DNA from: a bacterium
GTDB lineage: Bacteria > Patescibacteriota > Minisyncoccia > Phycocordibacterales > JAKAEA01
DNA length: 64,000 nucleotides
Reading direction: 5' to 3'
NCBI GenBank assembly: GCA_021818465.1
Contig: JAKAEA010000001.1
Location: 169,972 to 233,971 of the forward strand
A model generated the notes under the pieces. The model ran no database searches, was not told the DNA's origin, and saw only the letters and a program-made list of their open reading frames with translations. A program made the translations under genes and the position numbers. This document shows positions 26,751 to 63,404 of this stretch, piece by piece (the first letter of the stretch is position 1; every line of letters begins with the position of its first letter).

Positions 26751-26774
26751 GCGTAGGTGGCGTACAATGAAGTC

Positions 26775-34208: not shown

Positions 34209-34288
34209 ATGGTTTTTTGTGGATAACTCCAACGACTCACACTAGTCGGCACGGTACAATAAGGCCATTATCATAGCTATCCATTACA

Positions 34289-39831
<5,543 letters not shown>

Positions 39832-47021: not shown

Positions 47022-47050
47022 ACGCTATTATGCGGTACATTTCAATATTG

Positions 47051-47983: not shown

Positions 47984-48664
47984 ATGATTTATTTTGATAA
48001 CGTCTCTAAACAATACGCCGACAATTCCATAGCTCTGGATAGTATTACGCTCGCTGTAGATCCGCAAGAATTTGTATCAATTGTTGGACATTCTGGTGCC
48101 GGCAAAACCACACTCATAAAAATGCTTCTTGCTGAAGAGCGGCCTACCGATGGCAGGGTATATTTTCAGTCGGTTGATATTCACGATTTACGTCGCAACG
48201 AGATGAATCTTTATCGTCGAAAAATTGGTGTGGTATTTCAGGATTTTCGTTTGCTACCATATAAAACAGCTTTTGAAAATATTTCCTTTGCAATGGAAGC
48301 GGCGGGTCGAAGTGATGCGGAAATAAAATCAGATGTACCGCATGTATTAGATCTTGTTGATTTGGGTGAAAAAATGTGGAATTTTCCGCACCAACTTTCC
48401 GGTGGAGAAAAACAGCGGGTGGCGATTGCTCGAGCTATTGTCAATCAACCCGACGTTTTAATTGCCGATGAGCCTACCGGCAATCTTGATCCGGTCAATA
48501 CGTACGACATTGTCCAGATTCTCAAAAAAATTAATGATTTGGGAACTACGGTGCTCCTCACGACCCATAATCGTGGCGTTATCGATTCTATTGGTGGGAG
48601 AGTGATTTCAATGGAAGCCGGAAGAATTATTCGCGACGATCGTAATGGTCGGTATGTTTTTTAA
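47984..48664 (+). CDS. ftsE: cell-division ABC transporter ATP-binding protein FtsE
   Basis: Walker A GHSGAGKTT, ABC signature LSGGEKQRVAIARA, Walker B VLIADEPTG. Confidence 0.9.
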   Translation: MIYFDNVSKQYADNSIALDSITLAVDPQEFVSIVGHSGAGKTTLIKMLLAEERPTDGRVYFQSVDIHDLRRNEMNLYRRKIGVVFQDFRLLPYKTAFENISFAMEAAGRSDAEIKSDVPHVLDLVDLGEKMWNFPHQLSGGEKQRVAIARAIVNQPDVLIADEPTGNLDPVNTYDIVQILKKINDLGTTVLLTTHNRGVIDSIGGRVISMEAGRIIRDDRNGRYVF

Positions 48665-48691: not shown

Positions 48692-49618
48692 ATGTTCTGG
48701 ACTACCAATAAACGAATTATAAAAGCCGGCTTCGTTGGTTTTTGGCGCAATGGTTTTGTGTCGTTGTCGTCTATTGTGGTTATGACGGTGACACTACTCG
48801 TTATTGTTGCCAGTCTTTTGTTCAGTATCATTTTTAGTGCCACGCTCAATCAAATCAAAAATCAAGTTGATATCACTGTCTATTTTGTGACCACCGCATC
48901 AACGAGCGATATGTTGGCGTTGCAAAAGTCTGTCGATGCTTTACCAGAAGTGGCTACTACCACATTTATCTCTGCCGATCAGGCCTTAGCAAATTTTAAA
49001 CAACGCCACGCCACCGATGAATTGACCCTACAGGCTTTAGATGAAATTAACGGCAATCCCCTTGGAGCTGAGCTGAACATTAAGGCCAAAGATCCGTCAC
49101 AGTACGCAGACATTGCCGCTTATCTTCAATCGCAAAGTGTCTCGCCAACTAATGGTTTGCCTATTATTGATACCGTTAATTACAATCAAAATCAGGCGGC
49201 CATTACCAAATTGACCGCTATCATTGACGGCAGTCGTCGGTTTGCACTTATTCTTATTGGAATTATGGTGGCTATTTCGCTCATCATTACCTATAACACT
49301 ATTCGTCTTGCTATTCACGCCTCGCGCGAAGAAATTGCTGTGGAGCGGTTGGTGGGCGCTAGTTCGCGTTTTGTTCGTGGGCCGTTTGTGATTGTTGGTA
49401 TTATGTGCGGTATTGTATCGGCTATTTTGGCGGCGGTAATTTTGTATCCGGCGACATACTACTTAGCGCAAACTACGACCACGTTTTTTATCGGTTTTAA
49501 TATTTTTAACTATTATCTTGCCAACTTCGGTCAGATATTCCTTGTGCTTTTGGCAAGTGGCATTATAATTGGAGCGATTTCTAGTTGGTTGGCAGTACGT
49601 CGCTATCTTAAAGTATGA
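48692..49618 (+). CDS. ftsX: cell-division permease FtsX
   Basis: N-terminal TM, large periplasmic loop, three C-terminal TM helices. Follows ftsE. Confidence 0.85.
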   Translation: MFWTTNKRIIKAGFVGFWRNGFVSLSSIVVMTVTLLVIVASLLFSIIFSATLNQIKNQVDITVYFVTTASTSDMLALQKSVDALPEVATTTFISADQALANFKQRHATDELTLQALDEINGNPLGAELNIKAKDPSQYADIAAYLQSQSVSPTNGLPIIDTVNYNQNQAAITKLTAIIDGSRRFALILIGIMVAISLIITYNTIRLAIHASREEIAVERLVGASSRFVRGPFVIVGIMCGIVSAILAAVILYPATYYLAQTTTTFFIGFNIFNYYLANFGQIFLVLLASGIIIGAISSWLAVRRYLKV

Positions 49619-51375
49619 GCAAGAATCACAAATACGTTTTTGTTATTGGCGGTGTTATGTCCGGCGTCGGCAAGGGTATTGCCACCTCTGCCATCGGTCA
49701 AATTCTTCAAGCAAAAGGTTTTCGGATCAATCCAATCAAGATTGATCCGTATTTAAATGTGGATGCTGGTACCATGAACCCCACCGAGCACGGTGAAGTA
49801 TTCGTACTTGATTCTGGTTTGGAAACCGATCAAGACATGGGCAACTACGAGCGCTTCTTGGAAATGAATTTAACGCCCGAAGATTATATGACGAGCGGCA
49901 TGATCTATAAACACGTCATTGAGCGTGAACGCAACCTCGGCTATGGTGGCAAGTGCGTGGAAGCTATTCCGCATATCACTGGCGAAATTGTGCGTCGCAT
50001 TATGCGCGCAGCGGAAAAAACTCGTTCCGATATCTCGCTCATAGAAATCGGCGGCACGGTCGGTGATTATCAGAACATGATGTTTTTAGAAGCAGCGCGC
50101 ATTTTGCGCTTGCGTCAGCCGGAAAGCGTATGTTTCGTGTTGGTTAGCTATTTACCTGTGCCTTCAAAACTTGGTGAAATGAAAACGAAGCCGACGCAAA
50201 CAGCAGTGCGAATGCTGAATAGTTACGGTATTCAGCCAGACATTATTATTGCGCGCTCCACCCATCCGCTTGATGCACGTCGCAAAGAAAAAATAGGAGT
50301 GTCGTGTAATGTGCACGGCGACCGCGTCATTTCCGCACCGGACATTGATTCTGTGTACGATGTACCTTTGAATTTTGAAAAAGATCACATTGGCGAAACT
50401 ATTTTGGACGTGTTACGGATGAAGCCAAAACATAATGGCACAGCTTTGGCATCGTGGAAAAAATTTGTGGCCAAGACTAAAAACGGCACGCGCGATGTTA
50501 CGATTGCTGTAGTGGGGAAGTATTTTGATTCTGGTGACTTCGTACTTTCTGACGCATATTTGTCAGTGATTGAAGCGATCAAGTTTTCGTCCTACTGGCA
50601 CAATGCGCGACCCAAGCTCACGTGGATAAATGCGAAAGAGTATGAGACTGGCATGCGTAAGGTAAGTGAGCTGGCCGCTTTCGATGGCATTATTGTTCCT
50701 GGTGGCTTCGGTACCTCTGGCATTGAAGGGGTTATCAGCGCCGTGCAATATGCTCGTGAACATAAAATTCCGTTCCTTGGTCTTTGTTACGGTATGCAAT
50801 TGCTTACGGTAGAATTTGCTCGTCATGTTGCTAAAATTCGCAACGCCCATACTGTTGAAGTTGATCCGCAGACCGATGCGCCTATCATCGACATTATGCC
50901 TGATCAAAAAAAGTTTCTCGCTTCTGGTCGGTATGGTGCCACGATGCGTCTCGGTGCATATCCCGCTAAGCTCAAGAAGGGAACTATTGCTCGTGATGCC
51001 TATGGTACCGAAAAAATTTCCGAACGTCATCGCCATCGCTACGAAGTTAATCCGGCTTTCATCAATAAACTTCTTGCCGCTGGTCTTGTGTTTTCTGGCA
51101 CCTCGCCTGACGACACACTTATGGAAATTGCTGAATTGCCACGCGAAGTGCATCCATTTATGCTCGGTACGCAATTTCATCCAGAATTAAAAGCGCGGCC
51201 GTTGGCACCTCACCCGCTCTTCGATGCTTTCATTAGTGCCGCTCTGAAGTCGCGCCCCCTGCTTGTGCATAAACAAAAAACAATTGATGCAAAGAAACAA
51301 AAAGCTCCAATTCCATCGAAAAAAATTTCTTCCCTCAAGCTCTTGAAGAAAACCGCTTTTTCCAGTATTGTGTAA
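49615..51375 (+). CDS. pyrG: CTP synthase
   Basis: N-terminal synthetase domain (KYVFVIGGVMSGVGKGI) and C-terminal class I glutamine amidotransferase domain (GLCYGMQ, His-Glu). Confidence 0.95.
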   Translation: MSKNHKYVFVIGGVMSGVGKGIATSAIGQILQAKGFRINPIKIDPYLNVDAGTMNPTEHGEVFVLDSGLETDQDMGNYERFLEMNLTPEDYMTSGMIYKHVIERERNLGYGGKCVEAIPHITGEIVRRIMRAAEKTRSDISLIEIGGTVGDYQNMMFLEAARILRLRQPESVCFVLVSYLPVPSKLGEMKTKPTQTAVRMLNSYGIQPDIIIARSTHPLDARRKEKIGVSCNVHGDRVISAPDIDSVYDVPLNFEKDHIGETILDVLRMKPKHNGTALASWKKFVAKTKNGTRDVTIAVVGKYFDSGDFVLSDAYLSVIEAIKFSSYWHNARPKLTWINAKEYETGMRKVSELAAFDGIIVPGGFGTSGIEGVISAVQYAREHKIPFLGLCYGMQLLTVEFARHVAKIRNAHTVEVDPQTDAPIIDIMPDQKKFLASGRYGATMRLGAYPAKLKKGTIARDAYGTEKISERHRHRYEVNPAFINKLLAAGLVFSGTSPDDTLMEIAELPREVHPFMLGTQFHPELKARPLAPHPLFDAFISAALKSRPLLVHKQKTIDAKKQKAPIPSKKISSLKLLKKTAFSSIV

Positions 51376-51383: not shown

Positions 51384-51454
51384 TGCGGGTTCGTCTAATG
51401 GTAGGACACATGCCTCTGGAGCATGGTATTGGGGTTCGAGTCCCTGACCCGCAG
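51384..51454 (+). tRNA. tRNA-Gln (anticodon CUG)
   Basis: TGCGGGTTCGTCTAATGGTAGGACACATGCCTCTGGAGCATGGTATTGGGGTTCGAGTCCCTGACCCGCAG. U1-A72 pair, 3-bp D stem. Anticodon loop CTCTGGA. Confidence 0.8.
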
Positions 51455-51546
51455 CAGTCTAGAAAAGTATCGAAGGACCCAAAGGGGTCATATTTGCCCG
51501 CTCTTTGTGGGCTGCTTCGATATGCGAGATAATTCCCACATTCCTG

Positions 51547-52521
51547 ATGGCTAAAAAGAAAAAGAAGAAAAATTCAGGTCCCAAAAATCAGCACTTCGTA
51601 CCCAGGTGCTATCTTTCGGAGTTTACAGACCCCAACACCCCTGCAGGTCAGGAGCCCTACGTCTGGGTGTTTGATAAAGACGGTAAGAATCCTCGAAAGA
51701 AGGCCCCTAAGAATATCTTTACCGAAACGCATCTGTATACCTTCGAATTCAACGGCGAAAAGGACTTCACCATAGAAAAGAGCCTTTCAGCCATCGAGTC
51801 AAAATACGCTTACATTTTCCGTAGCAAGATCAAAGAGAAAAAGCCCCTTTCGGAGTCGGAACACGCCTATCTCTGTGCCTTCGTGGCGGCACAACTGCAA
51901 CGCACTCTGCGGTTCAAACAAAACCAGGAGAATTTCATCCAGCAGCTTATCGATCATGGCACTCAGATGGCGATGGCCCATGGGGTGACCGATTCTCCGC
52001 AGGTCCGCGCATGGCAGGAGTACAAAAAGGACATCCATAAATTGCAGCTCGTGGATGGTATTCCGTTCTTAGCAAATATTCTCATGCAGATGAGTCTGGC
52101 GTTCCTTTGCTCAAAGAATCCGAACAAAAACTGGTTCATTACCTCTGACGATCCGTGCGTGTTATTCAACCCCGACCTCCAGTGGCAGAAATTCTACGGT
52201 CCCGGTTTTGGGCAACAGAATGTGCAGCTTACTCTGGCTTTAAGTCCGGAGATAATCGTTATGTTCACGTGGGCGAACTTCCATGGCTACTCGTACGTTG
52301 ATGGCGGGAACGTAGATAATATGCTCAACCGAATGACTCGAGCCCATGCTGATAAGGAATTCATCTCGCCTTATCCAAAGAAGAAATGGATATGGTTCAG
52401 CCGTGTTCCGCTTGACCCCTTCTTTCTTCTGAAAGTCGTAAAGAATGAGACCAAAGTGTTCCTGCATCGTGTGAGGAATAATTGGCAGTATAGGAAAATA
52501 TATGCGAGACGCAGAAAGTAA
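51547..52521 (+). CDS. DUF4238-like protein, paralog 1
   Basis: N-terminal HFVPRCYLSEF (HxxPxxYLxxF) and downstream TSDDP motif, the pattern I associate with DUF4238. Lys-rich N-terminus. ATG at 51547. Confidence 0.5.
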   Translation: MAKKKKKKNSGPKNQHFVPRCYLSEFTDPNTPAGQEPYVWVFDKDGKNPRKKAPKNIFTETHLYTFEFNGEKDFTIEKSLSAIESKYAYIFRSKIKEKKPLSESEHAYLCAFVAAQLQRTLRFKQNQENFIQQLIDHGTQMAMAHGVTDSPQVRAWQEYKKDIHKLQLVDGIPFLANILMQMSLAFLCSKNPNKNWFITSDDPCVLFNPDLQWQKFYGPGFGQQNVQLTLALSPEIIVMFTWANFHGYSYVDGGNVDNMLNRMTRAHADKEFISPYPKKKWIWFSRVPLDPFFLLKVVKNETKVFLHRVRNNWQYRKIYARRRK

Positions 52522-53398
52522 TTTCAAACAAGCCCTTGATGGGATTGTTGGGTCAAGTCGATCCGATCAAAAAAAGATAGAGGCGATCAGCGAACTGATT
52601 GCTGGCTTGAACACGCTCGAACAGAACCCTGAAATTCGCCTCGCTACCGAAACGGGAGCTGTGCTGGCGCGTAAGGCAAACAGGCCAGAAATGGCTGCGC
52701 AGCTTTGTCTTATGAGAGCTAAGGCAGAGATTGCTCAGGCGGGTGAGCTGATAGCCGAAATGAAGAACCTTAAAATGGCGATAGATTGGCGCGGTTTTGC
52801 CCTTGAGAAAGCAGCAAATCGGCACAAAGACTTAGAAAAGAAGTTGAACGCAACATGGAGTGCCACTCAGGCGTTTATCGATGCAGGCTACAAGCTACTT
52901 AATGAAAAGCCATACGTTGGAGCGGCCGCTTACTGCCACGATGCTGCAGGTCAGATTTATGGCCAGCATTATCTTCAGCTGAAACTCTACTACCTAACAA
53001 CAGGAAGACCGTGGCGTGCACGAATCGGGAATTACAAAATCAGCCGGTGGCTTAGCCTAGACGACTTTTTCGTGATTGATAAAAAGTCTCGCGCACATCT
53101 CCGAAAGGTTCGGAAGGATTGTCTAACCTCGCTTCACCAGGCAATGAAGCTCTATCGACAGATTAAGGCGCGAGATTATATAATCGACACGTACCTTGAC
53201 CTGGCTCTTGAGCATCATTCTTTTAATGATGCGATTCAGAGCAAGTTTTATCTTCTTCTTGCAAGGATGTTAATGAGCGTATGGGGTCTCTCGAATAATT
53301 CTCGACTTAAGCCGAGGCTTAAGTCGCTAGAAAAACTGCCTCTGATTGGCAGCGATCGGAACGATGATATTAGTCGACAGTTACCAAACCTTTCGTGA
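52502..53398 (+). CDS. hypothetical alpha-helical protein (partner of DUF4238 paralog 1)
   Basis: 298-aa ORF overlapping the upstream gene by 20 nt (translational coupling). No recognisable motif. Confidence 0.4.
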   Translation: MRDAESNFKQALDGIVGSSRSDQKKIEAISELIAGLNTLEQNPEIRLATETGAVLARKANRPEMAAQLCLMRAKAEIAQAGELIAEMKNLKMAIDWRGFALEKAANRHKDLEKKLNATWSATQAFIDAGYKLLNEKPYVGAAAYCHDAAGQIYGQHYLQLKLYYLTTGRPWRARIGNYKISRWLSLDDFFVIDKKSRAHLRKVRKDCLTSLHQAMKLYRQIKARDYIIDTYLDLALEHHSFNDAIQSKFYLLLARMLMSVWGLSNNSRLKPRLKSLEKLPLIGSDRNDDISRQLPNLS

Positions 53399-54647
53399 TT
53401 TTTAGCTTGGTTCGAAGGCAGTCCATCAGGTCGCGCTTCTCGAATATTGACCCTTCTGTCAGGAGGTACTTTGCATAGTTCCGTATATCGGCATCTTTCA
53501 CGGAATAGTTCTCATCAGCTTTGCCCATAATCCCTGAATGGAATTTCTTATGCCGCTCGATCTCGGCTTCAAGTTTCTTCTTGATACCTGATCGTTCCAG
53601 ATCAATTACATCAAAGATTCTTAGGAATTCTTTAATAAGCACTTTCTCTTCGGTATATCCTTCTTTGCAGTTGATGTTTCGGGAACGGGTGCAGCCGTAG
53701 TAAATGTATTTGGCGACGGAGCCGTCTTTAAGAGATTTGAATTTCTCCTGGGCGGTTATTCCTGAGCCACAAGCTCCACAGGAGAGGAGACGGGTGAAGG
53801 CAAATTCTTTATTTCGATTCTTCGATTTGACTTGGAGATGAAGCTGCTTCTGTACCTCCTCGAACAACTCCTTAGAAATGAGCGGCGTGTGCTTGCCCTG
53901 GAACCATCTGCCGCTCGCTTTCGGGTATTCAAATGTGCCGTAGTAGAAATGGTTATTCAGAATGACGTAGACGTTGCTCAAGGTGAGTGGCTTTCCGGTG
54001 CGGGTCTTGAACTTAATGTCTTTAAGCCATCGGTATACTTTTCGGCCGCTCCAGCCCTCGTTAGCTACTTTTTGAAAGAGGTCCTTGATAACAGGAGCTC
54101 TATCTGGGTCTACGAATACGACACCTTTCTGGTCTTTGTTTTTGGAGTTGAGATAGCCGGTTGGAGCGACACTTGGCCAAAGCCCGAGCTCGCACTTAGT
54201 CTTGAGGCCGCGCTTCACATTAATGCTCTTATTGTCGTTCTCGAGTTTTGCTTGGCTGCCGAGAATCATCAGGAGGAACTTCTCGTTTGGGTTGTTGGTA
54301 AACCGCTGGCTGTAGGTACGGATCTCTAAGAGCTTCTTCTGATCGAAGAGGTCCACGATCGCACCAAGGTCTCCCGCGTTGCGAGAGAGGCGGTCGGGGT
54401 GCCATACGAGGATTCCATCGAATTTGCCCTCACGGATATCCATCAGAAGCTTGTTGAAAACAGGCCGCTGGCCGGCATCCTTTGCGGAGTGCGACTCGCG
54501 ATACATATCGACCACATTCAGTCCATCTCGCTGGGCGAGGCTCAGCATCTCCTTGAGCTGGGAATCTATCGAAAGCGCCTGTTTCTCCTCGGCCTCGCTC
54601 GATTTCCGGGCATATAGGCAGTACCTGACGGGGTCCTGGTTTTCCAT
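53370..54647 (-). CDS. large serine recombinase (resolvase catalytic domain, recombinase domain, zinc-ribbon)
   Basis: N-terminus MENQDPVRYCLYARKSSEAEEKQALSIDSQ has the catalytic Ser in the YARxSS context. It continues DGILVWHPDRLSRN. Recombinase domain and a Cys pair (CGACGSG...CTRSR) follow. Start at the internal Met at 54647 preferred over the 498-aa ORF. Confidence 0.85.
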   Translation of the reverse strand: MENQDPVRYCLYARKSSEAEEKQALSIDSQLKEMLSLAQRDGLNVVDMYRESHSAKDAGQRPVFNKLLMDIREGKFDGILVWHPDRLSRNAGDLGAIVDLFDQKKLLEIRTYSQRFTNNPNEKFLLMILGSQAKLENDNKSINVKRGLKTKCELGLWPSVAPTGYLNSKNKDQKGVVFVDPDRAPVIKDLFQKVANEGWSGRKVYRWLKDIKFKTRTGKPLTLSNVYVILNNHFYYGTFEYPKASGRWFQGKHTPLISKELFEEVQKQLHLQVKSKNRNKEFAFTRLLSCGACGSGITAQEKFKSLKDGSVAKYIYYGCTRSRNINCKEGYTEEKVLIKEFLRIFDVIDLERSGIKKKLEAEIERHKKFHSGIMGKADENYSVKDADIRNYAKYLLTEGSIFEKRDLMDCLRTKLKITKGLVTVD

Positions 54648-54741
54648 ACAACACAACACATGCCCGAAGCGAGGGAAGAAGTCCAGTGGTGGATAGGTGG
54701 TAACTTTCAAGTGAATTTGACTTTGATCCATTTGATGCATT

Positions 54742-55053
54742 ATGATGGTAGGTATGGAAGAGTCAGTTTCTGGATACAAAGCAGTCAAGCGGCTTGCAGT
54801 AGAGCGGCCTGATTGGCTCCCCATTGTTCGAGAATGCTTGAATTTGCGGAAAGAGATCCATAACACCGATTTCGCTGGTGCATGGGTATATCAGCGCCTT
54901 CAAGAAAAGGGCGGACCGAAATTTTCAAACCTGCGTCTTCTTGTTAGCTTTGGCATCTTGAAGAAAGAGGCAACTTCGCGCGGTGGTCGACGCGCGTACT
55001 ATTCTTTCGTAGATCCTGAAGGGGTTGAGCGGGCACTTGGCGAGTTGAAATAA
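54742..55053 (+). CDS. small hypothetical protein, possible winged-helix DNA-binding protein
   Basis: 103-aa ORF divergent from the recombinase and immediately upstream of the MTase operon. The basic C-terminal half RLLVSFGILKKEATSRGGRRAYYSF is winged-helix-like. Confidence 0.3.
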   Translation: MMVGMEESVSGYKAVKRLAVERPDWLPIVRECLNLRKEIHNTDFAGAWVYQRLQEKGGPKFSNLRLLVSFGILKKEATSRGGRRAYYSFVDPEGVERALGELK

Positions 55054-55057
55054 TTTT

Positions 55058-56155
55058 ATGAAAGCGAAAGTTGCAAATACAAGCCTTCACGGCGCGAAAA
55101 AGGCGAAGAAAGACGAGTTTTACACTCAACTCGTCGATATCGAAAAGGAGCTGAAGCACTACAAAGACCAGTTTCGCGGCAAAGTAGTCTATTGCAATTG
55201 CGACGACCCATTCGAGAGCAATTTCTTCAAATATTTCGCCGCAAATTTCAACGCGCTCGGATTGAAGAAACTCATCACGACAAGTTTTGTAAAATCGCCT
55301 ATCGCTGGCGGGCAGTTGCCGCTCTTTGAAATGCAGGGACTAAAGCCCGACGGCAAAGAGCCGTTCAAAATTGAAATACGGGAAGTACCTGACGCAGACG
55401 GCGACGGCGCGATCAACCTTGATGACGTGAAGTATCTACTACAACACGACAAGAACACCGCAATCCCGCTGAAAGGCAACGGTGATTTCCGTAGCGACGA
55501 ATGCATAGAATTTCTTAAAGAGGCGGATATTGTTGTGACAAACCCGCCATTCTCGCTTTTCCGCGAATACATTTCGCAATTGGTAGAACATAATAAAAAA
55601 TTCCTTATCATCGGCAATATCAACGCCGTCACTTACAAAGAAGTGTTCCCTTTGGTTAAAGCAAACAAATTGTGGCTTGGCGCAAGTATCCATAGCGGCG
55701 ACCGTGAGTTTAGAGTGCCGGAAGACTACCCGCTAAACGCGGCCGGATACCGAGTTGATGGAGAAGGAAACAAATATATTCGCGTCAAAGGTGTGCGCTG
55801 GTTTACAAATCTTGATTATGACGAGCGCCACGACAGCATTGTGCTTTACAAAAAGTATTCGTCAAAAGAGTATCCGAAATACGATAACTACGACGCCATA
55901 AACGTGGATAAGACCGTCGATATTCCAATGGACTACAAAGGCGCTATCGGCGTACCAATTACTTTTCTTGATAAATACAGCCCCGACCAATTTACAATTT
56001 TGGGCGCGTTGATCTCCGGCCCACTCGGACAAGAGTTAGGAGCGACCAAAACGAAACAAATAAGGCCAAACGGAAAAACGACGATGGAATACGGGCCCAT
56101 TATCAAGACCAAAGGTTATTACGGAAGAATTGTCATTAAAAATAAAACACTATGA
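55058..56155 (+). CDS. putative N6-adenine DNA methyltransferase-like protein (gamma-class order: EFYT motif X then NPPF motif IV)
   Basis: DEFYTQ near the N-terminus and DIVVTNPPFS at about aa 165. No textbook glycine-rich motif I visible; VVYCNCDDPF occupies that position. Contains a DADGDGAINLDD loop. Confidence 0.5.
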   Translation: MKAKVANTSLHGAKKAKKDEFYTQLVDIEKELKHYKDQFRGKVVYCNCDDPFESNFFKYFAANFNALGLKKLITTSFVKSPIAGGQLPLFEMQGLKPDGKEPFKIEIREVPDADGDGAINLDDVKYLLQHDKNTAIPLKGNGDFRSDECIEFLKEADIVVTNPPFSLFREYISQLVEHNKKFLIIGNINAVTYKEVFPLVKANKLWLGASIHSGDREFRVPEDYPLNAAGYRVDGEGNKYIRVKGVRWFTNLDYDERHDSIVLYKKYSSKEYPKYDNYDAINVDKTVDIPMDYKGAIGVPITFLDKYSPDQFTILGALISGPLGQELGATKTKQIRPNGKTTMEYGPIIKTKGYYGRIVIKNKTL

Positions 56156-57243
56156 AAATCGAGCTACATAAAATCAAAATACGAGAAGTCGTTAACGGCT
56201 TCAAAGACAGCGCCGAGGAAGGTGTCGTGGCGTATGGCGGCAAGCTTGATGTCCGCCCGAAGTACCAGCGCGAGTTCGTCTACAAAGACAAGCAGCGCGA
56301 CGCCGTGCTTGATACGGTCAAGAAAGGATTCCCGCTCAACGTCATGTACTGGATGGTGCGCGAGGATGGCGGCTTTGAAGTGCTCGACGGCCAACAGCGC
56401 ACCATCAGTATCGGCCAGTATGTGAATGGCGACTTTTCGCTTGGCGACCGCTATTTCCATAACCTCATCAAAGAGGAGCAAGAGCAGACTTTGAACTACG
56501 AACTGATGATTTATTTCTGCGAAGGCACGGACAAAGAGCGGCTCGACTGGTTTAGGACTATCAATATTGCGGGCGAGAAACTAACAGACCAAGAGCTTCG
56601 AAATGCCGTGTATACCGGCCCGTGGCTTTCGGATGCAAAACTTAAATTCAGCAAGACCGGCTGCGCCGCGTATCACTTGGCGAACGATGGCGGAGCGCTT
56701 GTGAGCGGCTCGCCGATCCGCCAAGAGTATTTGGAAACTGCGCTCTCATGGATAAACAAGGGCGAGGTGGCGGATTACATGGCGAAGCATCAGCACGACA
56801 AGGACGCCGAGAAATTGTGGGCGTACTTTCAGGACGTAATAGCGTGGGTGCGAAAGACGTTCCCCAACTACCGCAAGGAAATGGCGCACGTGAATTGGGG
56901 CGAGCTGTACAACGAATACAAGGACAAAAAACTAAACGCCACCAAGCTTGAGACCGAGGTCAAGAAGCTCATGCAAGACGAGGACGTAACGAAAAAGTCC
57001 GGCATCTACCCGTATGTGTTGACCGGCAACGAACGCGAGCTTTCTATCCGTGCGTTTACCGACAAAATGAAGCGCGAGGCATACGAGCGGCAAGACGGCG
57101 TCTGCACATTCTGCAAAAAGAAGTTTGATATTTCGGAAATGGAGGCCGATCACATTACACCCTGGCACGAAGGTGGAAAAACAACAGCTGACAACTGCCA
57201 GATGCTCTGCAAACTGGATAACCGAACAAAGTCGGGGAAATGA
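56152..57243 (+). CDS. DUF262 (ParB-like, DGQQR motif) domain fused to C-terminal HNH nuclease
   Basis: N-terminal KYQREFVYK...EVLDGQQRTISI. C-terminal CTFCKKKFDISEMEADHITPWHEGGKTTADNCQMLCKLDN (HNH with Zn-binding Cys). Start overlaps the MTase stop (ATGA). Confidence 0.7.
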   Translation: MKIELHKIKIREVVNGFKDSAEEGVVAYGGKLDVRPKYQREFVYKDKQRDAVLDTVKKGFPLNVMYWMVREDGGFEVLDGQQRTISIGQYVNGDFSLGDRYFHNLIKEEQEQTLNYELMIYFCEGTDKERLDWFRTINIAGEKLTDQELRNAVYTGPWLSDAKLKFSKTGCAAYHLANDGGALVSGSPIRQEYLETALSWINKGEVADYMAKHQHDKDAEKLWAYFQDVIAWVRKTFPNYRKEMAHVNWGELYNEYKDKKLNATKLETEVKKLMQDEDVTKKSGIYPYVLTGNERELSIRAFTDKMKREAYERQDGVCTFCKKKFDISEMEADHITPWHEGGKTTADNCQMLCKLDNRTKSGK

Positions 57244-58922
57244 AATACATGCCTGAGATCGTTCACCAGTTTTCAAATGCAGTGAGCATTATCTTGCACA
57301 ATCCGATCTGGGAAACTCACTCCTCATACAACTTGGGCGTTGCAATCACGGCCATAGCCATAGTTGTTGCGTTTATTGAATTTATTGCAAACAGGCGAGA
57401 GCTAAGATTTAGTTTGAATTACAGAAAGAGACAAATGGCCCTATGGTTTGCTGTTGCGAGCATAGCATTAACGTTTTTGGGAGAATTAGACGGCCTTTTT
57501 CTTGGTTACCCCTTTATTTTTGAGACCAGTGGAGCGGTACTCATGATTGCCGCTATAGCGATTTATCTCAGATTAGTTCTTAGTCCACTCAAACGACTCA
57601 ATAAAAAACAAATCTCCGTCCTACAAGATATTTTGGCCGGAACATTGTCCAATGCTCATTTGGATAAACCACAAATCGTTCGTGGTTGTATGGAGCTATT
57701 TGAAAATTTGCTGGACCTTTCCTTAGACAACAAAGATGTTCGAGGCATTTTCAGAAATGCTTTCGCCAGTGATGTCTTCCTCAAATCTTTTTCTGAATCT
57801 TATTTTGTATTCGGACGTACAGTCGATTTCTATAGGCAGAAAAGAATAGAGGGTGGACACGATTTAGACCATCTTGAATTTTTTCTCAAGCGACTCATGA
57901 CCAAGTCACTTGAGAACGGCGAATCATTCTTGAATATGTTCATTGGACAAAAAATCTATCCAAATGCCCTGTTTTGCCTTGATGATGTGATGATAAACGA
58001 GAAAAACGATTCGGCGCTTCAAACTCTTTTTGGGGAATATGGATATAACGGATTGGATTATGTTGGTCAGTTAAATTACATAGATCTGGTCACTCGTTAT
58101 TTCAGACTGGTTTATCAGGAAAATAATCATATAAGCCTAAAAGACGGATATCAACGAAATTACGAGTTGAATGATGGTCTTATTGGGATTTTCTTTGAAC
58201 AAATCAGCAACTTTATTGAGAGGTGTTATGACCAAAAACACCTTGAGGCTCTGATCGATAAGACGGAGGGTTTTTCGTGGTACTACACCTGGGGGGTCAG
58301 AACTCGAGATAAGAGCGAGCACATAAGAGGAGACACCGGCAAGTTTCTATTTGATGTTTTCTATAACTCTATTAGCAAATACGAGATCGAAAATGAGGAA
58401 ATATTCAGATTGAAAGTACATCAGTTGTACGATCATTTTCTTGAGATGCAGGAGAACGGGGTTGAGAGTAACATCGCTTACGCCGTCTTCGTAGAAAAGT
58501 TAAAGAAAAAAATACTTGGCGACGGAAAGGATGGAGACATGCCAAACTACAAGGGTTATTTCCCGGCAATGATTCTGGTCTATTTCTATATGTTTGGTTT
58601 TTATGCTTTCTCGGAAAAGCAGAATGAGGCACAGGCGAGAGACTTGCACGTACCTGTTTTCTCAAAACTAGCTGAGGCGTTTCCTAAGCTTTATCAAGGT
58701 TTTAAACAAGAATTTTATGATGCGGAAACTCTCCCAGAAGGTAAAAAAGAATTGCTCGAAAAGCAGGGACGAGAGACTTTAGATCAGTTCTTAAAAAAGA
58801 ACATGGTCTATAACTTTGAAGAAAACTCGCTGTCATATTACTACAGCGGCAACGTACACAGCGCAAAAGTATTTCTGAATGATGTTCGCGACAAACAGAC
58901 GATCGAGCCGAAGAGATTATGA
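57240..58922 (+). CDS. hypothetical membrane-anchored alpha-helical protein (operon member 3)
   Basis: 560 aa. Three or four N-terminal TM helices, then a large soluble all-alpha domain and one further hydrophobic segment near aa 440. Start overlaps the upstream stop (ATGA). Confidence 0.4.
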   Translation: MKYMPEIVHQFSNAVSIILHNPIWETHSSYNLGVAITAIAIVVAFIEFIANRRELRFSLNYRKRQMALWFAVASIALTFLGELDGLFLGYPFIFETSGAVLMIAAIAIYLRLVLSPLKRLNKKQISVLQDILAGTLSNAHLDKPQIVRGCMELFENLLDLSLDNKDVRGIFRNAFASDVFLKSFSESYFVFGRTVDFYRQKRIEGGHDLDHLEFFLKRLMTKSLENGESFLNMFIGQKIYPNALFCLDDVMINEKNDSALQTLFGEYGYNGLDYVGQLNYIDLVTRYFRLVYQENNHISLKDGYQRNYELNDGLIGIFFEQISNFIERCYDQKHLEALIDKTEGFSWYYTWGVRTRDKSEHIRGDTGKFLFDVFYNSISKYEIENEEIFRLKVHQLYDHFLEMQENGVESNIAYAVFVEKLKKKILGDGKDGDMPNYKGYFPAMILVYFYMFGFYAFSEKQNEAQARDLHVPVFSKLAEAFPKLYQGFKQEFYDAETLPEGKKELLEKQGRETLDQFLKKNMVYNFEENSLSYYYSGNVHSAKVFLNDVRDKQTIEPKRL

Positions 58923-59821
58923 ATAAACAGAGTCGAAGCCATCATTATCTACCGCGACATTATCTCGAAGGCTTTAAAGGGAGCAACAGCGGTTTTTTCG
59001 TCTACGACAAACAGGAAGATAAAATCTTTCCCTCCAGCCCCGGCGCTACTTTCTTTGAAAATCACCTAAATACCGTCTACCTTCCTGACGGTAAAACCTC
59101 TGTATTCGTCGAAGACCAATACACAAACATTGAGAATGATTGCTGGCCCGCCATAGATAGGATAAGGACCTCCGACAGCAAGACCCTAATTACTCACGAG
59201 GACAAGGAATTCTTGCATCTCTTCTTGTCTTCGCTGTACTGGAGGCTTCCAATAAATTCATCGATGGCAGAGCAGTGGTCCAAGAGTGCATTCACTGACA
59301 CCAGTCCTGTCGATTACTTTCGTCTGAAAAACAAGCAAGGAAAATCGATACCGCGTCACATCGTAGATGCGATTAGGGACTCAGATGCATTCAAAAAATC
59401 ATTCAGATTGATCCTGTCCATGGCTCCTTTTCTCAAGGATAAGAGTTGGGGTCACAAGTTGCAAAACTGGCGATTTTTCTATCACCAAAACGGGCAGCGC
59501 TTCAACATTGTTGGCGATAATCCAATTCTGACCCGAACTGAAAATCACGAAGACCCAGTATCATTGTTGGACGAATTTGTATTTCCACTATCAGCGAGCA
59601 TAACAATCGTTAATACAAACCCCGTTCCAACAAAAGGCCTATCTCCGGAATTTACCCTTCAATTAGGTGTAGCGATGGTAGAGAGGGCGCGGCGGTTCGT
59701 CGTTTCTCACAACAAAGCTTGGCTAGAAGCAGTAGTAGGCCACTACAAAATTTATGCGAACGCGGGAATGAATCACCTGATTCTCGATCAATTATGCCTC
59801 ATGTTGCAACAGGCAGCCTAG
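58919..59821 (+). CDS. DUF4238-like protein, paralog 2 (operon member 4)
   Basis: N-terminal HHYLPRHYLEGF and downstream GDNPIL motif. Start overlaps the upstream stop (ATGA). Confidence 0.5.
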   Translation: MNKQSRSHHYLPRHYLEGFKGSNSGFFVYDKQEDKIFPSSPGATFFENHLNTVYLPDGKTSVFVEDQYTNIENDCWPAIDRIRTSDSKTLITHEDKEFLHLFLSSLYWRLPINSSMAEQWSKSAFTDTSPVDYFRLKNKQGKSIPRHIVDAIRDSDAFKKSFRLILSMAPFLKDKSWGHKLQNWRFFYHQNGQRFNIVGDNPILTRTENHEDPVSLLDEFVFPLSASITIVNTNPVPTKGLSPEFTLQLGVAMVERARRFVVSHNKAWLEAVVGHYKIYANAGMNHLILDQLCLMLQQAA

Positions 59822-59862
59822 CCCCAGTCTTCAGAGCGTTTTTCGGAGCAGTGTTGAAGGCC

Positions 59863-60081
59863 TTATAGAAAATACTCGACCTTCTTTCCGTAAAGCTTCG
59901 CGAGTCGGTTTAGCCAAATAGCCTCAACTCGCAATTCTCCAAGTTCGATCTTAGATACCCAAGACTGTGAACAGCCGAGCTTTTCTGCTACTTCGGCCTG
60001 CGTAAGCCCAGCTTCCAAGCGGGCTTTCTTGAGTTTCTTCACGAACCCGGCCCGCTCATCGGTATGAATGGACTTCTTCAT
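59863..60081 (-). CDS. XRE-family (Cro/C1-type) HTH transcriptional regulator
   Basis: LTQAEVAEKLGCSQSWVSKIE, a classic HTH_3 signature. 72 aa. Confidence 0.8.
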   Translation of the reverse strand: MKKSIHTDERAGFVKKLKKARLEAGLTQAEVAEKLGCSQSWVSKIELGELRVEAIWLNRLAKLYGKKVEYFL

Positions 60082-60095
60082 ACCTATAAGCGTCT

Positions 60096-60125
60096 ATTCC
60101 GTATTGGGATATTCCAAAGCGGAAT
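60096..60125. promoter_or_regulatory. imperfect inverted repeat, candidate operator of the XRE regulator
   Basis: attccgtattgg-gatatt-ccaaagcggaat, lying 15-45 nt upstream of the regulator start (minus strand). Confidence 0.3.
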
Positions 60126-60230
60126 ATTTATGCTAAGCTCAGAAATAGCCTCCAAAACCGCCATTTGTGGAGGTGTTGGTAACTGGGACTACACAACCCT
60201 CCGAAAAGAAGCTAAAGAACAAGGACCCAT

Positions 60231-60806
60231 ATGAAAACCCACATAATCGTTACGGCACTCATCACCGTTTTTGCGCTCCCGACCGTCGCGCTAGGAGCTT
60301 CCTTCACATACTCGCTGATTCAAGGCAGGACGCCAGCAGAGGCCGTATCGATCATTGCCGATCAGGTGGATCTACTTTTTGGCCGCGTAGATACCCTCGA
60401 AGCACAGCAAGCAAGCACGACCGCCGAGCTTGAGCAATTGAAGCAGGAGAACGCAAATCTTCAGGCAAAGACAGCTGCGATAGCATCAAGCACGGCAAAG
60501 GCTAGCGCCGCTGAAGATAGGCGCTCAACCTGCGCAGACTTCGCCAGTAGGATCGGCAAGATAGAGACATCTATAAAGGCACCGTACGTTCAGCAGATGA
60601 CCACGCTCAGTGCTCAGATTCACACTCTTGCTGCGCAGAAGAATAGTGCCAGTACCACGATGGACGAAGCGGTCCAAATAAAGCAACAGATGCAAGCTCT
60701 ACAGAAGCAGATGAGCGACTTGAACGACCAGATGCAGCAAGCCATGGACGCAAATACCGATCTACAGGCACTCATTAAGCAGGCCAATAATCTCCTATGC
60801 GCCTGA
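60231..60806 (+). CDS. secreted coiled-coil protein
   Basis: Signal peptide MKTHIIVTALITVFALPTVALGA, then Gln/Ala-rich heptad-like sequence. Confidence 0.4.
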   Translation: MKTHIIVTALITVFALPTVALGASFTYSLIQGRTPAEAVSIIADQVDLLFGRVDTLEAQQASTTAELEQLKQENANLQAKTAAIASSTAKASAAEDRRSTCADFASRIGKIETSIKAPYVQQMTTLSAQIHTLAAQKNSASTTMDEAVQIKQQMQALQKQMSDLNDQMQQAMDANTDLQALIKQANNLLCA

Positions 60807-61030
60807 CAAGCCGATATCTGAAAATTGGGATAGGTGTTGTTGCTGTGGTGGTTTTGCTGCTGATTTACCACGTAGCTGTTGTCGTGCCGAAAGAGGTTCG
60901 TGAACTATGCGACAAGCAGGCGATGCAAGCCGCTGCTCCAGCAGCCGATTATCGCCCAGACTACTCGCTTGATTTATACACATTAAAATTTAATTCCTGT
61001 CTCCACAGTCACGGATTGCAGGCAAGGTAG
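60797..61030 (+). CDS. small hypothetical membrane protein
   Basis: 77-aa ORF with one TM segment (IGIGVVAVVVLLLIYHVAVVV). Overlaps the previous gene by 10 nt. Confidence 0.25.
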   Translation: MRLTSRYLKIGIGVVAVVVLLLIYHVAVVVPKEVRELCDKQAMQAAAPAADYRPDYSLDLYTLKFNSCLHSHGLQAR

Positions 61031-61207
61031 CTGGGGGTATAATTAAGCAAAAGTCGGAGAACCCGGATACCTGGGCCCGCAAGCATTCGACAATCCGCAT
61101 TTGCGCGACCGATTGCTCCGAAGGTGAAAAGAGGAAAATACAGGAGAACTCTTTCCACGCTCACCGAGCATTAAGAGCCCTGCCTTATTTGCTAAGCGTT
61201 ATTGCTT

Positions 61208-61768
61208 ATGCAAGGCAGAAAGATACCTAATGATACGTGGAAGAAATTTCCACGAGTACTTGCTCAAGTGGGCGGCTCCATAACCGCAGCCGCTACCCAA
61301 TTTGGGGTTGATCCAAGATCCGTCTATTACCACATGCGACGCAATCCAGCGTTCGCAAGCAAAATTCAGGAAGTCTACGACACAACCGTCGTTCCTATCC
61401 TTGAACAGCAGATGTACGCGCTCGCGCTCTCGAAGGACTATCGGGCGATGAGATTCATTCTTGCTAACCGTTCGCCGCGAAGGTGGAATACGGAATTCGT
61501 ACTCCGCACCGAGCTTGAAGTGGAACTCGCGCGAGAAGTGAAGAGGATAGAAGACGGCGAGAAGAAGCGAAAGCCGGTCTGTAAATGGATGTCGCTTAGG
61601 GAACTAATCCTCAAGCACATCTATGAACAGCACCTCTACAGCGGACAACCCATTCCGGACATACTTACGATAGATACGAGAGAGGAGAAGAAATACTTCG
61701 AGTCGTATCGATCTCACAGAGAAGCATGGCTCAAAGAGCATCCAGACGGAAGAGATGTAGGCGAGTAA
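61208..61768 (+). CDS. HTH-domain protein (phage terminase small subunit-like or regulator)
   Basis: N-terminal HTH GSITAAATQFGVDPRSVYYHMRRNP. ATG at 61208 preferred over the TTG at 61202. A hairpin spans the start region. Confidence 0.35.
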   Translation: MQGRKIPNDTWKKFPRVLAQVGGSITAAATQFGVDPRSVYYHMRRNPAFASKIQEVYDTTVVPILEQQMYALALSKDYRAMRFILANRSPRRWNTEFVLRTELEVELAREVKRIEDGEKKRKPVCKWMSLRELILKHIYEQHLYSGQPIPDILTIDTREEKKYFESYRSHREAWLKEHPDGRDVGE

Positions 61769-61777
61769 ATCGCAGAA

Positions 61778-61808
61778 CAGTCAAGGCCCCGAAAGGGGCC
61801 TTGACTGT
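61778..61808 (+). terminator. hairpin terminator
   Basis: cagtcaaggcccc-gaaa-ggggccttgactg; weak T-tail. Confidence 0.45.
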
Positions 61809-62009
61809 TGGGCTGTGCTTACCCTCAAATTCGGCGAAAAGTGCGAAAAGTTAGATCGACCTAAAGCCGTCAAAAGCCGTGGGGTAAATCTGCTAAAATA
61901 CCCTTACAACAGCTCGCTACAGTTGGTACCAGACCAGACATCGCAGCACTTATAAAATTTTGGGAATACAGTTTTCTTGTTTGATTTTTGTTAAACCAAG
62001 AGATTTTTA

Positions 62010-63404
62010 TTATAAAAAATGAATGTCCTCAATCTCTTCTCGTTGGCCGCGAATGACGGTGTCTGCAATGTGGGTGACGGCTTTTTTGGGCGTATTGAGG
62101 AGGCCGTTGACCGCCGCACCAGCCAACCAACCGGATTGTAGCCAATCTAGTAGCCACTCGTGCGTGAAGCGTGGATCAAATTGCTCAATGCCGGCGCCAA
62201 CCATGTGCAGCCACGCACGGTTCGATTCTTCTTGCGAGCCGAGCGGGGGAGCGATAATGATAGGCAAGCCAAGGCCTGCGTAAAAAGAAAGTTCACTCGG
62301 TTTAGTCCAGAGAATATCGGTTTCAGTTAGTGCGGCAGCGAATTTTTTAAAATACTCAAATGTATTCGGCGCGTACACAATATTGTTTTCACTCCGGATG
62401 CCAAGTCGCTGCATTGCTGCTTCAAATTTTTTCTTAATATACTCAAGCGCACCAGCTGCCAGTATGAGTCGAATGGTGCCAGACGTGATGTGCTGACGAA
62501 GTGATTCGAGAATTGTAATACCAATTTCCCATTGGGCGCCAGCGCCGCCAACAGAAAACATGATTGTAAGTGGCGTGCGGGTTACATCTGCAGTCGATTG
62601 CTTAAGTGATGCGCCAGTTGTGTCGCTGATGTAGAGATCTAAAAGTTCCCCATACTTTTTCCGATATCGGCCGTGGGGATCTAATACCGCAAGACGACGG
62701 GAAAGAGTGGCGGCAGTGATATCGGACCGATTAGATATTTCTGGTAAGGGAAAACCGGTGATGATAATGCGCTCGGCACGAATGCCGTAGAGTTTTAAAC
62801 GTTCTTTAGCACGCAGGGTTGGCGCAAGATAGGTGATGCGACTGCGTGTTGGATCAAGCGGTGCCCAGGCACGAGCTACGTCGGTGTCGGTGCACAAACA
62901 GTAAATGTCACCACGGTAACCGTGTTCTTCAGCAAAAAAAGCAGGAACAGGAAAGGTGCATATGAGAGGCAGCGGCTCGGCATTGAGTGTATCAATGAGG
63001 TGTTTGCCCCAGTGCGCTCTTCGAATTAATGTATATGTTTCTTTCAGCTCTAGTGTTGGTTGCGACAAGTCGCGGCGTGGATAAAATGGTGGAATTTGAT
63101 GGAGATAATCCATGAGGTGGAAAATACGCTTACCTAAAAAAGGAATACTGTCGAAACGCGACACGCCCTCGTATGTTTTTTCAATGTTATTCCAAATCAA
63201 TCGGTCTTTTTTAGGAATATTTGTATACGTATTCGCGGAAATAATTGTTGATTCAGTCGAATCCCAAAGTTTGGGTAGTGTGGCTATGCCACGCAAGGGG
63301 AATGCTGCTCGCTGATGACCGTAGCCCATATCTACTGCTACGACATATGCACCGCGAGGATGAATGGAAGATTCAGACATAGGTACTATCATTCTAGTAT
63401 ACAC
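62010..63404 (-). CDS. GT28-family (MurG/MGDG-synthase/UgtP-like) GT-B glycosyltransferase
   Basis: N-terminal Gly-rich loop VDMGYGH. C-terminal TKPSELSFYAGLGLPIIIAPPLGSQEESNRAWL resembles the MurG/UgtP donor-binding region. Confidence 0.5.
   Translation of the reverse strand: MYTRMIVPMSESSIHPRGAYVVAVDMGYGHQRAAFPLRGIATLPKLWDSTESTIISANTYTNIPKKDRLIWNNIEKTYEGVSRFDSIPFLGKRIFHLMDYLHQIPPFYPRRDLSQPTLELKETYTLIRRAHWGKHLIDTLNAEPLPLICTFPVPAFFAEEHGYRGDIYCLCTDTDVARAWAPLDPTRSRITYLAPTLRAKERLKLYGIRAERIIITGFPLPEISNRSDITAATLSRRLAVLDPHGRYRKKYGELLDLYISDTTGASLKQSTADVTRTPLTIMFSVGGAGAQWEIGITILESLRQHITSGTIRLILAAGALEYIKKKFEAAMQRLGIRSENNIVYAPNTFEYFKKFAAALTETDILWTKPSELSFYAGLGLPIIIAPPLGSQEESNRAWLHMVGAGIEQFDPRFTHEWLLDWLQSGWLAGAAVNGLLNTPKKAVTHIADTVIRGQREEIEDIHFL

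Follow-up and report, generated by a model that had tools for sequence, protein, structure and literature searches.

A probable integrated element with a large serine recombinase and exchangeable defence genes at tRNA-Gln in a patescibacterial genome

The window analyzed here is a stretch of 64,000 nucleotides from a bacterium of the Phycocordibacterales (Patescibacteriota; contig JAKAEA010000001.1, positions 169,972 to 233,971, of assembly GCA_021818465.1), in which a block of accessory genes follows a tRNA-Gln(CTG) gene. Our analysis indicates that this block is very probably an integrated element, set at the 3' end of the tRNA gene by a large serine recombinase and equipped with exchangeable defence modules. 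As delimited by comparison with related elements, it comprises 10,492 bp (window positions 51457-61948) between the 3' end of tRNA-Gln(CTG) and a glycosyltransferase gene. A reading of the DNA made without database searches (the sequence-only reading) had already proposed an integrated element with defence cargo at this place. The proposal is supported by the variability of the site, by relatives with other cargo, by conserved arms and by the presence of restriction-modification (R-M) and DUF4238 genes.

Boundaries and att Sites of the Element

The 7-mer CGCAGCA is found at 51450-51456 and again at 61942-61948, both on the plus strand, and host sequence resumes at 61949. The sequence-only reading had called this repeat weak, and taken alone it is at chance level, but related elements show that it is the att core, since the conservation of the element arms begins or ends exactly at it in the window element and in loci L109, L111, and L112. 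The portion of the core common to all related elements is GCAGC, and the window tRNA-Gln is identical to that of the closest genome (L004, described below) up to ...GCAGC. The element-side half of attL, GTCTAGAAAAGTATCGAAGGACCCAAAGGGGTCAT (51457-51491, plus strand), is conserved in related elements, matching L109 over about 36 nt without a mismatch and L111 with one mismatch, and it is recognisable also in L116, L119, L118, L112, and L121. The tRNA next to it differs in most of the loci sharing the arm, L109 included, as do the host genes where these are seen; the pyrG of L111 is only 64% identical to that of the window despite the nearly identical arm. Because GTCTAGAAAAGTATCGAAGGACCCAAAGGGGTCAT is conserved while tRNA bodies and host genes differ, it is therefore assigned to the element as its P' arm.

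At the opposite end, a P-side non-coding block (61825-61941, plus strand) contains the motif TTGGTACCAGACC at 61923-61935. Window positions 61825-61948 align with the right end of L112, and the similarity vanishes right after CGCAGCA. The same motif is present at the right end of L111, which reads GTACCAGACCAGAGCACGCAGCC and is followed by sequence resembling the region downstream of tRNA-Gln. In L145, TTGGTACCAGACC and a core-like GCCAGC are followed directly by recombinase-side sequence with no tRNA, an attP-like layout that corresponds to the arrangement expected of attP. Furthermore, a Logan contig from an independent assembly also contains the right junction.

We propose that the recombinase would join an attP site, made of the P block, the core and the P' arm, to the T-arm and acceptor end of tRNA-Gln(CTG) together with the sequence downstream. 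Crossover would take place within GCAGC at the extreme 3' end of the tRNA, the T-arm and the 3' strand of the acceptor providing the host (B) half of attL. With a crossover at this position the tRNA would remain intact, and only a repeat of 5-7 bp would mark the ends. The predicted attP junction is ...GTTGGTACCAGACCAGACATCGCAGCA + GTCTAGAAAAGTATCGAAGGACC... (61900-61948 joined to 51457-51500), and the predicted empty attB is ...GGTTCGAGTCCCTGACCCGCAGCA + CTTATAAAATTTTGGGAATAC..., i.e., tRNA-Gln joined directly to ...CTTATAAAATTTTGGG. As read from the sequence, the joined arms take the form TTGGTACC-N5-AGAC-ATCGCAGCA-GTCT-N6-GTATCGAA, an imperfect dyad, and the host-side T-loop motif TTCGAGTC is about 4 nt nearer to the core than the distal motif on the element side. 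Serine integrases are known for a difference in spacing between attB and attP, which the difference observed here may resemble.

Local alignment of the two element ends gave scores no better than shuffled controls, and a partial tRNA at the far end, as in tyrosine-integrase islands, was looked for and not found. In an Rfam scan the tRNA was the sole match, the conserved non-coding arms hitting no known RNA family. A pattern scan of viral contigs for the P arm and core returned a single match, L189, which was rejected as a chance occurrence in unrelated GC-rich sequence with no homologous genes. An independent assembly from Logan (L002/L003, SRR13299515) breaks inside tRNA-Gln; one contig stops about 33 nt after pyrG and the other starts within the tRNA and spans the whole island to the DAHP synthase gene. 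Either k-mers of the tRNA that also occur in other members of the community or alternative junctions within the population could account for this break.

The left flank consists of prfB (47003-47932), ftsE (47984-48664), ftsX (48692-49618), pyrG (49615-51375) and tRNA-Gln(CTG) (51384-51455, plus strand; ARAGORN; Rfam RF00005, 55 bits), exactly the housekeeping order that the sequence-only reading had described. The prfB-ftsEX-pyrG order is kept in most of the 80 Paceibacteria genomes compared. Gene calls and family searches also agree with the earlier description of about 10.5 kb of accessory genes after tRNA-Gln. The right-hand neighbours, read earlier as a glycosyltransferase and an aroG-like gene, were found to be a DUF6938/MGDG-synthase-like (lipid) glycosyltransferase (62010-63404, minus strand) and a DAHP synthase. 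The terminator proposed at the end of the block stands only as a structure. A perfect hairpin with a 15-bp stem (61776-61809, repeat search) is indeed present after the last gene, but it has no T-run, it was not called by a terminator scan and the element runs about 140 nt further, to 61948.

Recombinase Family, tRNA Targets and Occupancy of the Site

The gene for the large serine recombinase (integrase) is located at 53370-54740 on the minus strand, as had been recognized, with its true start between 54647 and 54866. Pfam searches identified the domains Resolvase (PF00239, 4.7e-25), Recombinase (PF07508, 6.2e-18) and Zn_ribbon_recom (PF13408, 7e-4, below the gathering score), and catalytic-serine motifs (YARKSS, DRLSRN) can be read from the sequence. 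Judged by these domains, all three that make up a large serine recombinase, the enzyme appears to be intact. It matches integrases in PHROG (3e-72) and, in the PDB, SPbeta YokA (5.7e-17, residues 13-396 aligned) as well as the TP901-1 and A118 integrases. The best NCBIfam model is CcrB (5.9e-40), with a score of 137 bits against a cut-off of 900 that places the protein outside the Ccr equivalog.

Scans with this protein retrieved 20 loci from IMG/VR (47-61% identity) and at least 526 loci from JGI metagenomes, the best 80 of which were kept (59-85% identity). Homologues with about 55-85% identity occupy the same pyrG/tRNA-Gln site in the distant Paceibacteria L049, L075, L085, L111, L116, and L129 and are accompanied by other cargo. 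L049 carries an NsnA/PD-T4-2-like DUF262 protein and an AccI-like/Eco57I-like R-M pair, L075 a HEPN protein, and further relatives a type I R-M system (HsdM) or a STAND NTPase. As the same slots hold other R-M, DUF262, HEPN, and STAND genes in relatives, the family is therefore a carrier of exchangeable anti-phage modules, as far as homology can tell.

The closest genome, L004 (JAJYGQ010000001.1), has a pyrG 85-90% and a glycosyltransferase about 75% identical to those of the window. Its interval between tRNA-Gln and the glycosyltransferase holds 7.8 kb of different genes (HD-domain proteins, purD, CYTH, HIT), none of which occurs in the window, while no island gene was found at that site. Three copies of a 60-70-nt unit, made of the 3' half of tRNA-Gln and about 45 nt downstream of it, are present in L004 (11850-17873) at approximately 11868, 14525, and 17780, and bound recombinase-less blocks (HD protein, purD; CYTH, NDK-like, HD, HIT). 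On the basis of these repeats, the blocks look like att-flanked cassettes with metabolic genes, and the three copies of a tRNA-3'-end unit suggest that the site is a hotspot in this genome too. In L141, repeats about 85% identical (6239-6300 and 7850-7925) are found around 1.65 kb of cargo; they contain small hairpins with GNRA-like loops and show compensatory changes between loci (ATACCTGC...GCAGTAT vs. ATACCGG...CCGTAT).

The tRNA genes adjoining the recombinases were counted in those 77 loci whose downstream sequence extends for at least 400 bp. In 36 of them the opposite strand carries a tRNA gene within 5 kb 3' of the recombinase, and most of these tRNAs were Gln (26; 18 with anticodon CTG and eight with TTG), followed by Tyr (three), Arg, Asn and Ser (two each) and Leu (one). 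A second subfamily, with recombinases 56-63% identical to that of the window, carries a different P' arm, CAYATGCTAAGTCAGGTGACYGAG, which adjoins Leu, Arg, Asn and both Gln tRNAs. The L004 repeats resemble this arm, and the L004 blocks would thus seem to belong to the same superfamily, as cassettes lacking a recombinase. Close relatives were found at different tRNAs: the recombinases of L142 (Arg-CCT) and L146 (Leu-CAG) are 94% identical, and those of L150 and L155 (Asn-GTT) are 90-91% identical to that of L164 (Gln-CTG). These five loci have nearly the same element arm despite the different tRNA species, and in the case of L142 and L146 the two tRNAs differ in their acceptor strands but have almost the same T-arm.

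Other arrangements next to tRNA-Gln were also observed. In L006 (12366-14040), a recombinase gene (37% identity) directly follows tRNA-Gln and has a perfect inverted repeat of about 50 bp on either side (12366-12416 and 13990-14040), which suggests an invertible segment or a unit like an insertion sequence (IS) rather than an integrase at the end of an element. In L158 (9640-9960), tandem repeats of about 130 nt lie upstream of tRNA-Gln(TTG), each beginning with a 17-23-nt piece from the 5' end of the tRNA (one copy has a shorter piece) that is joined to unrelated sequence. Such displaced 5' tRNA fragments go beyond what the recombinase model explains, and similar ones are seen in L122, L165, L119, and L112.

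Cargo, Regulatory Switch and Terminase-Like Gene

Two cargo slots flank the recombinase gene, slot 1 toward the tRNA and slot 2 as a divergent operon. Slot 1 contains a gene for a DUF4238 protein (copy a; 51547-52521, plus strand, start according to the NCBI gene call; PF14022, 1.2e-34) and its partner orf298 (52502-53398, plus strand), the two overlapping by 20 nt. No family match was obtained for orf298 in Pfam, PADLOC, PHROG, or NCBIfam, and a possible relationship to orf560 of slot 2 was rejected, the sequences being unrelated on comparison. The DUF4238a-orf298 pair also follows an 83%-identical recombinase in L110, where the two proteins are 57 and 33% identical to those of the window, respectively.

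Slot 2 is an operon of five translationally coupled genes with 4-nt overlaps. It starts with orf103 (54742-55053, plus strand; no family match), which is divergent from the recombinase and possibly encodes a regulator or a directionality factor; its position is taken by a gene for 108 aa in L190 and by an HTH_17 excisionase-like gene in relatives. An adenine DNA methyltransferase of the M.EcoRI family follows (55058-56155, plus strand; PF13651, 3.9e-149; PADLOC MTase_II, 8.7e-129; NPPF motif), and then a DUF262 (GmrSD_N)-HNH endonuclease (56152-57243, plus strand; Pfam GmrSD_N, 9.6e-18, and HNH, 2.7e-12; PADLOC REase_II, 2.6e-136 over the full length) with DGQQR and HNH/CxxC motifs in its sequence. 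The two genes overlap by 4 nt, so that a methyltransferase with motif IV adjoins an endonuclease as in type II R-M systems. A palindrome-avoidance test for the R-M target in the 64 kb gave one GGATCC against 7 expected and nine GAATTC against 15.7, counts that are not decisive at this length.

The third gene, orf560 (57240-58922, plus strand), encodes a membrane-anchored all-alpha protein. Its AlphaFold model (pLDDT 83.6, pTM 0.81) has an N-terminal membrane anchor and an all-alpha domain, and a fold search with the model found no solved relative, only generic alpha-solenoid matches with TM ≤0.3. The protein has 82 homologues (35-83% identity, many at 70-83%), is unusually well conserved and measures roughly 560-600 aa across the module loci. 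Each of the three further contexts inspected (L190, L192-L194, and L195-L196) places orf560 directly behind the same pair of methylase and nuclease genes, and this constant association with M and R defines a three-gene module. The last gene of the operon (58919-59821, plus strand; 4-nt overlap with orf560) encodes a second DUF4238 protein (copy b; PF14022, 3.7e-28), which shares just 25% identity with copy a, over the N-terminus, and which is absent from the other M-R-orf560 loci and so lies outside the conserved trio. In both DUF4238 proteins the domain match extends over nearly the full length, and both genes are translationally coupled to other genes; the PADLOC model DUF4238-Pers matches copy a only, and partially (1.6e-7). 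A DUF4238 protein from a P2 hotspot, described as a single-gene defence, has been reported to protect E. coli from T7 (Rousset et al. 2022; PMC9122126). Based on their sequences, the methylase/DUF262-HNH/orf560 trio and the DUF4238-partner pairs may be regarded as candidates for new defence mechanisms.

The cargo appears to have a history distinct from that of the recombinase. The M-R-orf560 module of L190 is 83-90% identical to that of the window and stands beside a recombinase only 58% identical, at tRNA-Ser(GGA). Similarly, the XRE-family repressors of the window and of L049 share 91% identity at the protein and 81% at the DNA level, their recombinases only 60%. As identity of cargo and XRE genes lies far above that of the recombinases, the elements are therefore mosaics that exchange modules, and the XRE regulatory module too appears, from these comparisons, to move between elements. 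In L049 (20513-20785, corresponding to window 59863-60135), conservation covers the XRE gene and about 54 nt upstream of it, and the pyrG genes of the two hosts are 64% identical.

The XRE gene itself (59863-60081, minus strand; 72 aa; PHROG repressor families, 2e-11; Pfam HTH_3/HTH_31) and an inverted repeat upstream of it agree with the Cro/C1-type regulator and nearby palindrome of the sequence-only reading. The operator-like repeats TATTCCG, TATTCC, and CGGAATA, read from the sequence, are located at 60095-60126, between XRE and a divergent small operon (60130-61030, plus strand; open reading frames (ORFs) and NCBI gene calls) composed of orf34, orf191, and orf77. The secreted and small membrane proteins noted earlier correspond to orf191 (60231-60806; signal-peptide-like N-terminus and coiled coil) and orf77 (60797-61030; small and hydrophobic). 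Homologues of orf191 occur at the same position in L075 (35%) and L112 (46%). XRE facing orf34, orf191, orf77 and the gene that follows them, across these repeats, may constitute a phage-type switch.

That gene (61202-61768, plus strand; 188 aa) was recognized earlier as encoding a helix-turn-helix (HTH) protein resembling a terminase small subunit (TerS), and its best PHROG annotation is indeed terminase small subunit (0.006). The resemblance holds for part of the protein only. Profile-profile comparison (hhalign) with small terminases encoded directly upstream of the large terminase (TerL) gave 96.9% probability (E 1.9e-10) over the N-terminal 78 columns, and the C-terminal half is unrelated. 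Since the homology is confined to these columns, the TerS-like protein would therefore combine the DNA-binding domain of a small terminase with a C-terminal half of another kind. A word-based protein search returned just two homologues, on short contigs. The relatives identified overall are those in L112 (44% identity), L126 (31%), and L075 (37%), as well as P0122 (66%) and P0123 (53%); wherever the context is visible, they take the same position at the end of the element.

Large terminase, portal, capsid, replication, and conjugation genes were not found in the island with Pfam, PHROGs, or NCBIfam, and neither TerL nor a ParB-methylase was found anywhere in the 64-kb window. Lacking capsid, large terminase, replication, and conjugation genes, the element should therefore be incapable of transferring itself from cell to cell. 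Elsewhere among the relatives of the recombinase, a protein that falls into one BLAST cluster with the TerS-like protein (TerS PHROGs, 2e-8) is encoded directly upstream of a large terminase (PHROG 38, 4.8e-83), both after ParB-methylase genes, and in many relatives a ParB-methylase, TerS and the recombinase occur without TerL. The 10 kb upstream in the TerS-TerL relatives encode a CI-like repressor, a Sie-like protein and nucleases, and no capsid or portal genes were found there; since none was recognised, these relatives too may be something other than complete phages. Tandem units of about 15-17 kb, each ending in ParB-methylase, TerS, TerL, and recombinase beside tRNA-Tyr or tRNA-Gln, are present in L173/L182 (one 560-kb contig) and L163/L177 (one 92-kb contig), and these may be terminase-encoding satellites rather than prophages.

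Alternative Explanations and Known Systems

A number of observations weigh against an integrated element carrying exchangeable defence modules. All sequences compared are metagenome-assembled genomes (MAGs) or metagenome contigs, and the CGCAGCA repeat would carry no weight by itself. The compositional deviation anticipated by the sequence-only reading is real but mild, with tetranucleotide distances of z +0.3 to +1.6 inside the island and -0.7 to -1.2 in the flanking housekeeping genes. A comparison with related genomes had been suggested as a way of finding an empty site and defining attL and attR; related elements did define the ends, but neither an empty attB nor an excised circle of the window element was found in the collections searched. 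Proteins identical to the pyrG and glycosyltransferase products were found only in the organism's own contigs, every one of which carries the island, and P0005, with a glycosyltransferase 70% identical, has a different synteny. Present-day mobility is therefore inferred from the relatives. Moreover, no recombination directionality factor was identified in the element, and slot 1 has no att copy of its own, as orf298 overlaps the 3' end of the recombinase gene by 29 nt. Only the N-terminal DNA-binding domain of the TerS-like protein is shared with phage small terminases, and L111, among the closest relatives by recombinase, has no detectable TerS-like gene. Finally, searches of IMG/VR with the TerS-like protein or orf191 returned no close homologue and no element of this architecture.

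As regards transfer, we favour packaging by a helper phage, which would be recruited via the TerS-like protein; passive transfer, as in the staphylococcal cassette chromosome (SCC), appears about equally likely. In its full form this idea makes the block a working phage satellite, similar to phage-inducible chromosomal islands (PICI), Staphylococcus aureus pathogenicity islands (SaPI) or phage-inducible chromosomal minimalist islands (PICMI): infection by a helper phage, or its induction, would open the XRE switch, the recombinase would excise the element and the TerS-like protein would direct the helper terminase to package the 10.5 kb. We regard this as possible but rather doubtful. The integrase, repressor, and TerS-like genes, the size of about 10 kb and the defence cargo in hotspots, as in P4 and PICI, fit a satellite. 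The TerS-like gene has been kept intact (186-200 aa) in the window element, L112, P0122, and P0123, its place at the end of the element recurs in the window element, L075, L112, and L126, its N-terminal domain is homologous to small terminases adjoining TerL in related elements, and TerS is kept without TerL in many relatives. However, a replication module and capsid-remodelling genes are missing, the C-terminal half of the protein has no counterpart in phage small terminases and L111 does without the gene. In addition, viral-particle collections yielded no such element, a helper phage was not identified and even the TerS-TerL relatives show no capsid or portal genes in 10 kb.

A composite origin is unlikely. 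It would regard the DUF4238a-orf298 pair as a separate recombinase-less cassette that accreted at the same site, like the ccr-less SCC cassettes or cis-mobilizable elements (CIMEs). Relatives do offer models for such accretion: in L141, about 75 nt of the arm downstream of the tRNA are repeated directly on both sides of the cargo between tRNA and recombinase, the three tRNA-3'-end and arm units of L004 bound blocks without a recombinase, tandem recombinase elements occur in L163/L177 and L173/L182, and the pair itself recurs as a unit in L110. In the window, however, neither the arm nor the core recurs between orf298 and the recombinase gene, which overlap as described, and the P' arm beside the tRNA is of the type typical of the window's own recombinase subfamily.

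A decayed, immobile prophage, with the recombinase, XRE, and TerS-like genes as leftovers and the defence genes as later arrivals, is in our view improbable. Such a remnant would account for the lack of structural, lysis, and replication genes, no virion genes of a prophage having been found, and for the lack of evidence of excision; the recombinase family is also found beside TerS/TerL/ParB-methylase modules in IMG/VR contigs. Yet every ORF is intact, the genes are tightly packed with 4-nt overlaps and the same reduced architecture recurs across hosts with different cargo. The att arms are nearly identical at the nucleotide level while the recombinases are about 80% identical, which points to selection on functional sites. 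Furthermore, the gene order cannot be derived by deletion from the TerS-TerL-recombinase layout, as TerS is inverted and located at the far end.

That the block is ancestral core genome and the repeat a coincidence can practically be dismissed despite the mild compositional deviation and the missing empty site, since the island genes are missing from this site in L004, the closest genome, homologous elements are found with other cargo, hosts, and tRNAs, and elements with host genes about 64% identical have cargo in common at 83-91% identity.

Taken as an integrated element, the block combines features of several known systems. It resembles SCC and SCCmec in its large serine recombinase, with CcrB as the best NCBIfam model, in an insertion site that leaves a conserved housekeeping gene intact by lying at its extreme 3' end, in its very short repeats, in variable cargo including R-M and no transfer genes of its own, and in the tandem accretion with recombinase-less cassettes seen in its relatives. 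In contrast to SCC, which targets rlmH, the target here is a tRNA gene, the score lies far under the CcrB cut-off, phage-type XRE and TerS-like genes are present and the host belongs to the candidate phyla radiation (CPR). With the serine integrases of phages (A118, SPbeta SprA/YokA, TP901-1, and phiC31) it shares the three-domain enzyme and att sites with an imperfect dyad around a short core. The serine integrases of temperate phages usually target protein-coding genes, unlike the window family, which targets tRNA 3' ends, and the window element has no virion genes.

Similarities with the phage satellites SaPI/PICI and PICMI comprise the integrase, the repressor, the packaging-type (TerS-like) gene, for which a packaging role would be assumed, the size of about 10 kb and the defence cargo, and the PICI-like element (PLE) also uses a large serine recombinase. 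It differs from all of these in having no replication or capsid-remodelling genes and no known helper, and in a TerS homology limited to the DNA-binding domain. The tycheposons of Prochlorococcus are likewise tRNA-targeted elements of a streamlined genome; some carry cargo, others are PICI-like (with terS), and they also form tandem arrays that include partial tRNAs. Tyrosine recombinases are used by 910 of 937 tycheposons, and replication genes occur in many, whereas the window family relies on large serine recombinases and showed no replication genes. The hotspots of P2 phages and P4 satellites also place interchangeable anti-phage systems, including a DUF4238 gene, in fixed slots by backbone genes (PMC9122126), but backbone, integrase class and host phylum are different.

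CPR bacteria (Patescibacteria) have tiny genomes, mostly without CRISPR, and the way in which they acquire genes is little understood. The family described here would offer a concrete mechanism for the circulation of defence genes among them, in which a serine recombinase acts at a fixed tRNA site and the cargo occupies two slots. More tentatively, and with considerable doubt, it may represent an undescribed superfamily in CPR bacteria whose recombinases read the generic T-arm and acceptor end of a tRNA as attB and could be retargeted from one tRNA species to another by very few changes; the TerS-only and TerS+TerL forms would then be the first CPR phage satellites, ferrying defence modules that include a trio other than a plain type II system. 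Serine integrases are genome-engineering tools prized for their strict site specificity. Hundreds of natural variants with defined att arms, among them close relatives at different tRNAs, thus constitute a data set on how specificity is encoded, and the M-R-orf560 trio and the DUF4238 pairs, as candidates, could yield new defence mechanisms. In the literature, no paper describing this element family was found, and a search combining Patescibacteria, serine recombinase, and prophage gave no results. Neither integrases nor tRNA targets are mentioned in a published survey that covers genomic islands and R-M systems of Patescibacteria (PMC12455944).

Elsewhere in the window, the strongest compositional outliers lie outside the island, at 23000-27000 and 31566-37780; one is a low-GC stretch (0.34-0.38), and in the other, where tetranucleotide z reaches +2.8, there are two ORFs of very large size (880 and 1163 aa). 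ARAGORN also called a tRNA-Ile with anticodon TAT at 8726-8800, which is an uncommon bacterial way of reading AUA.

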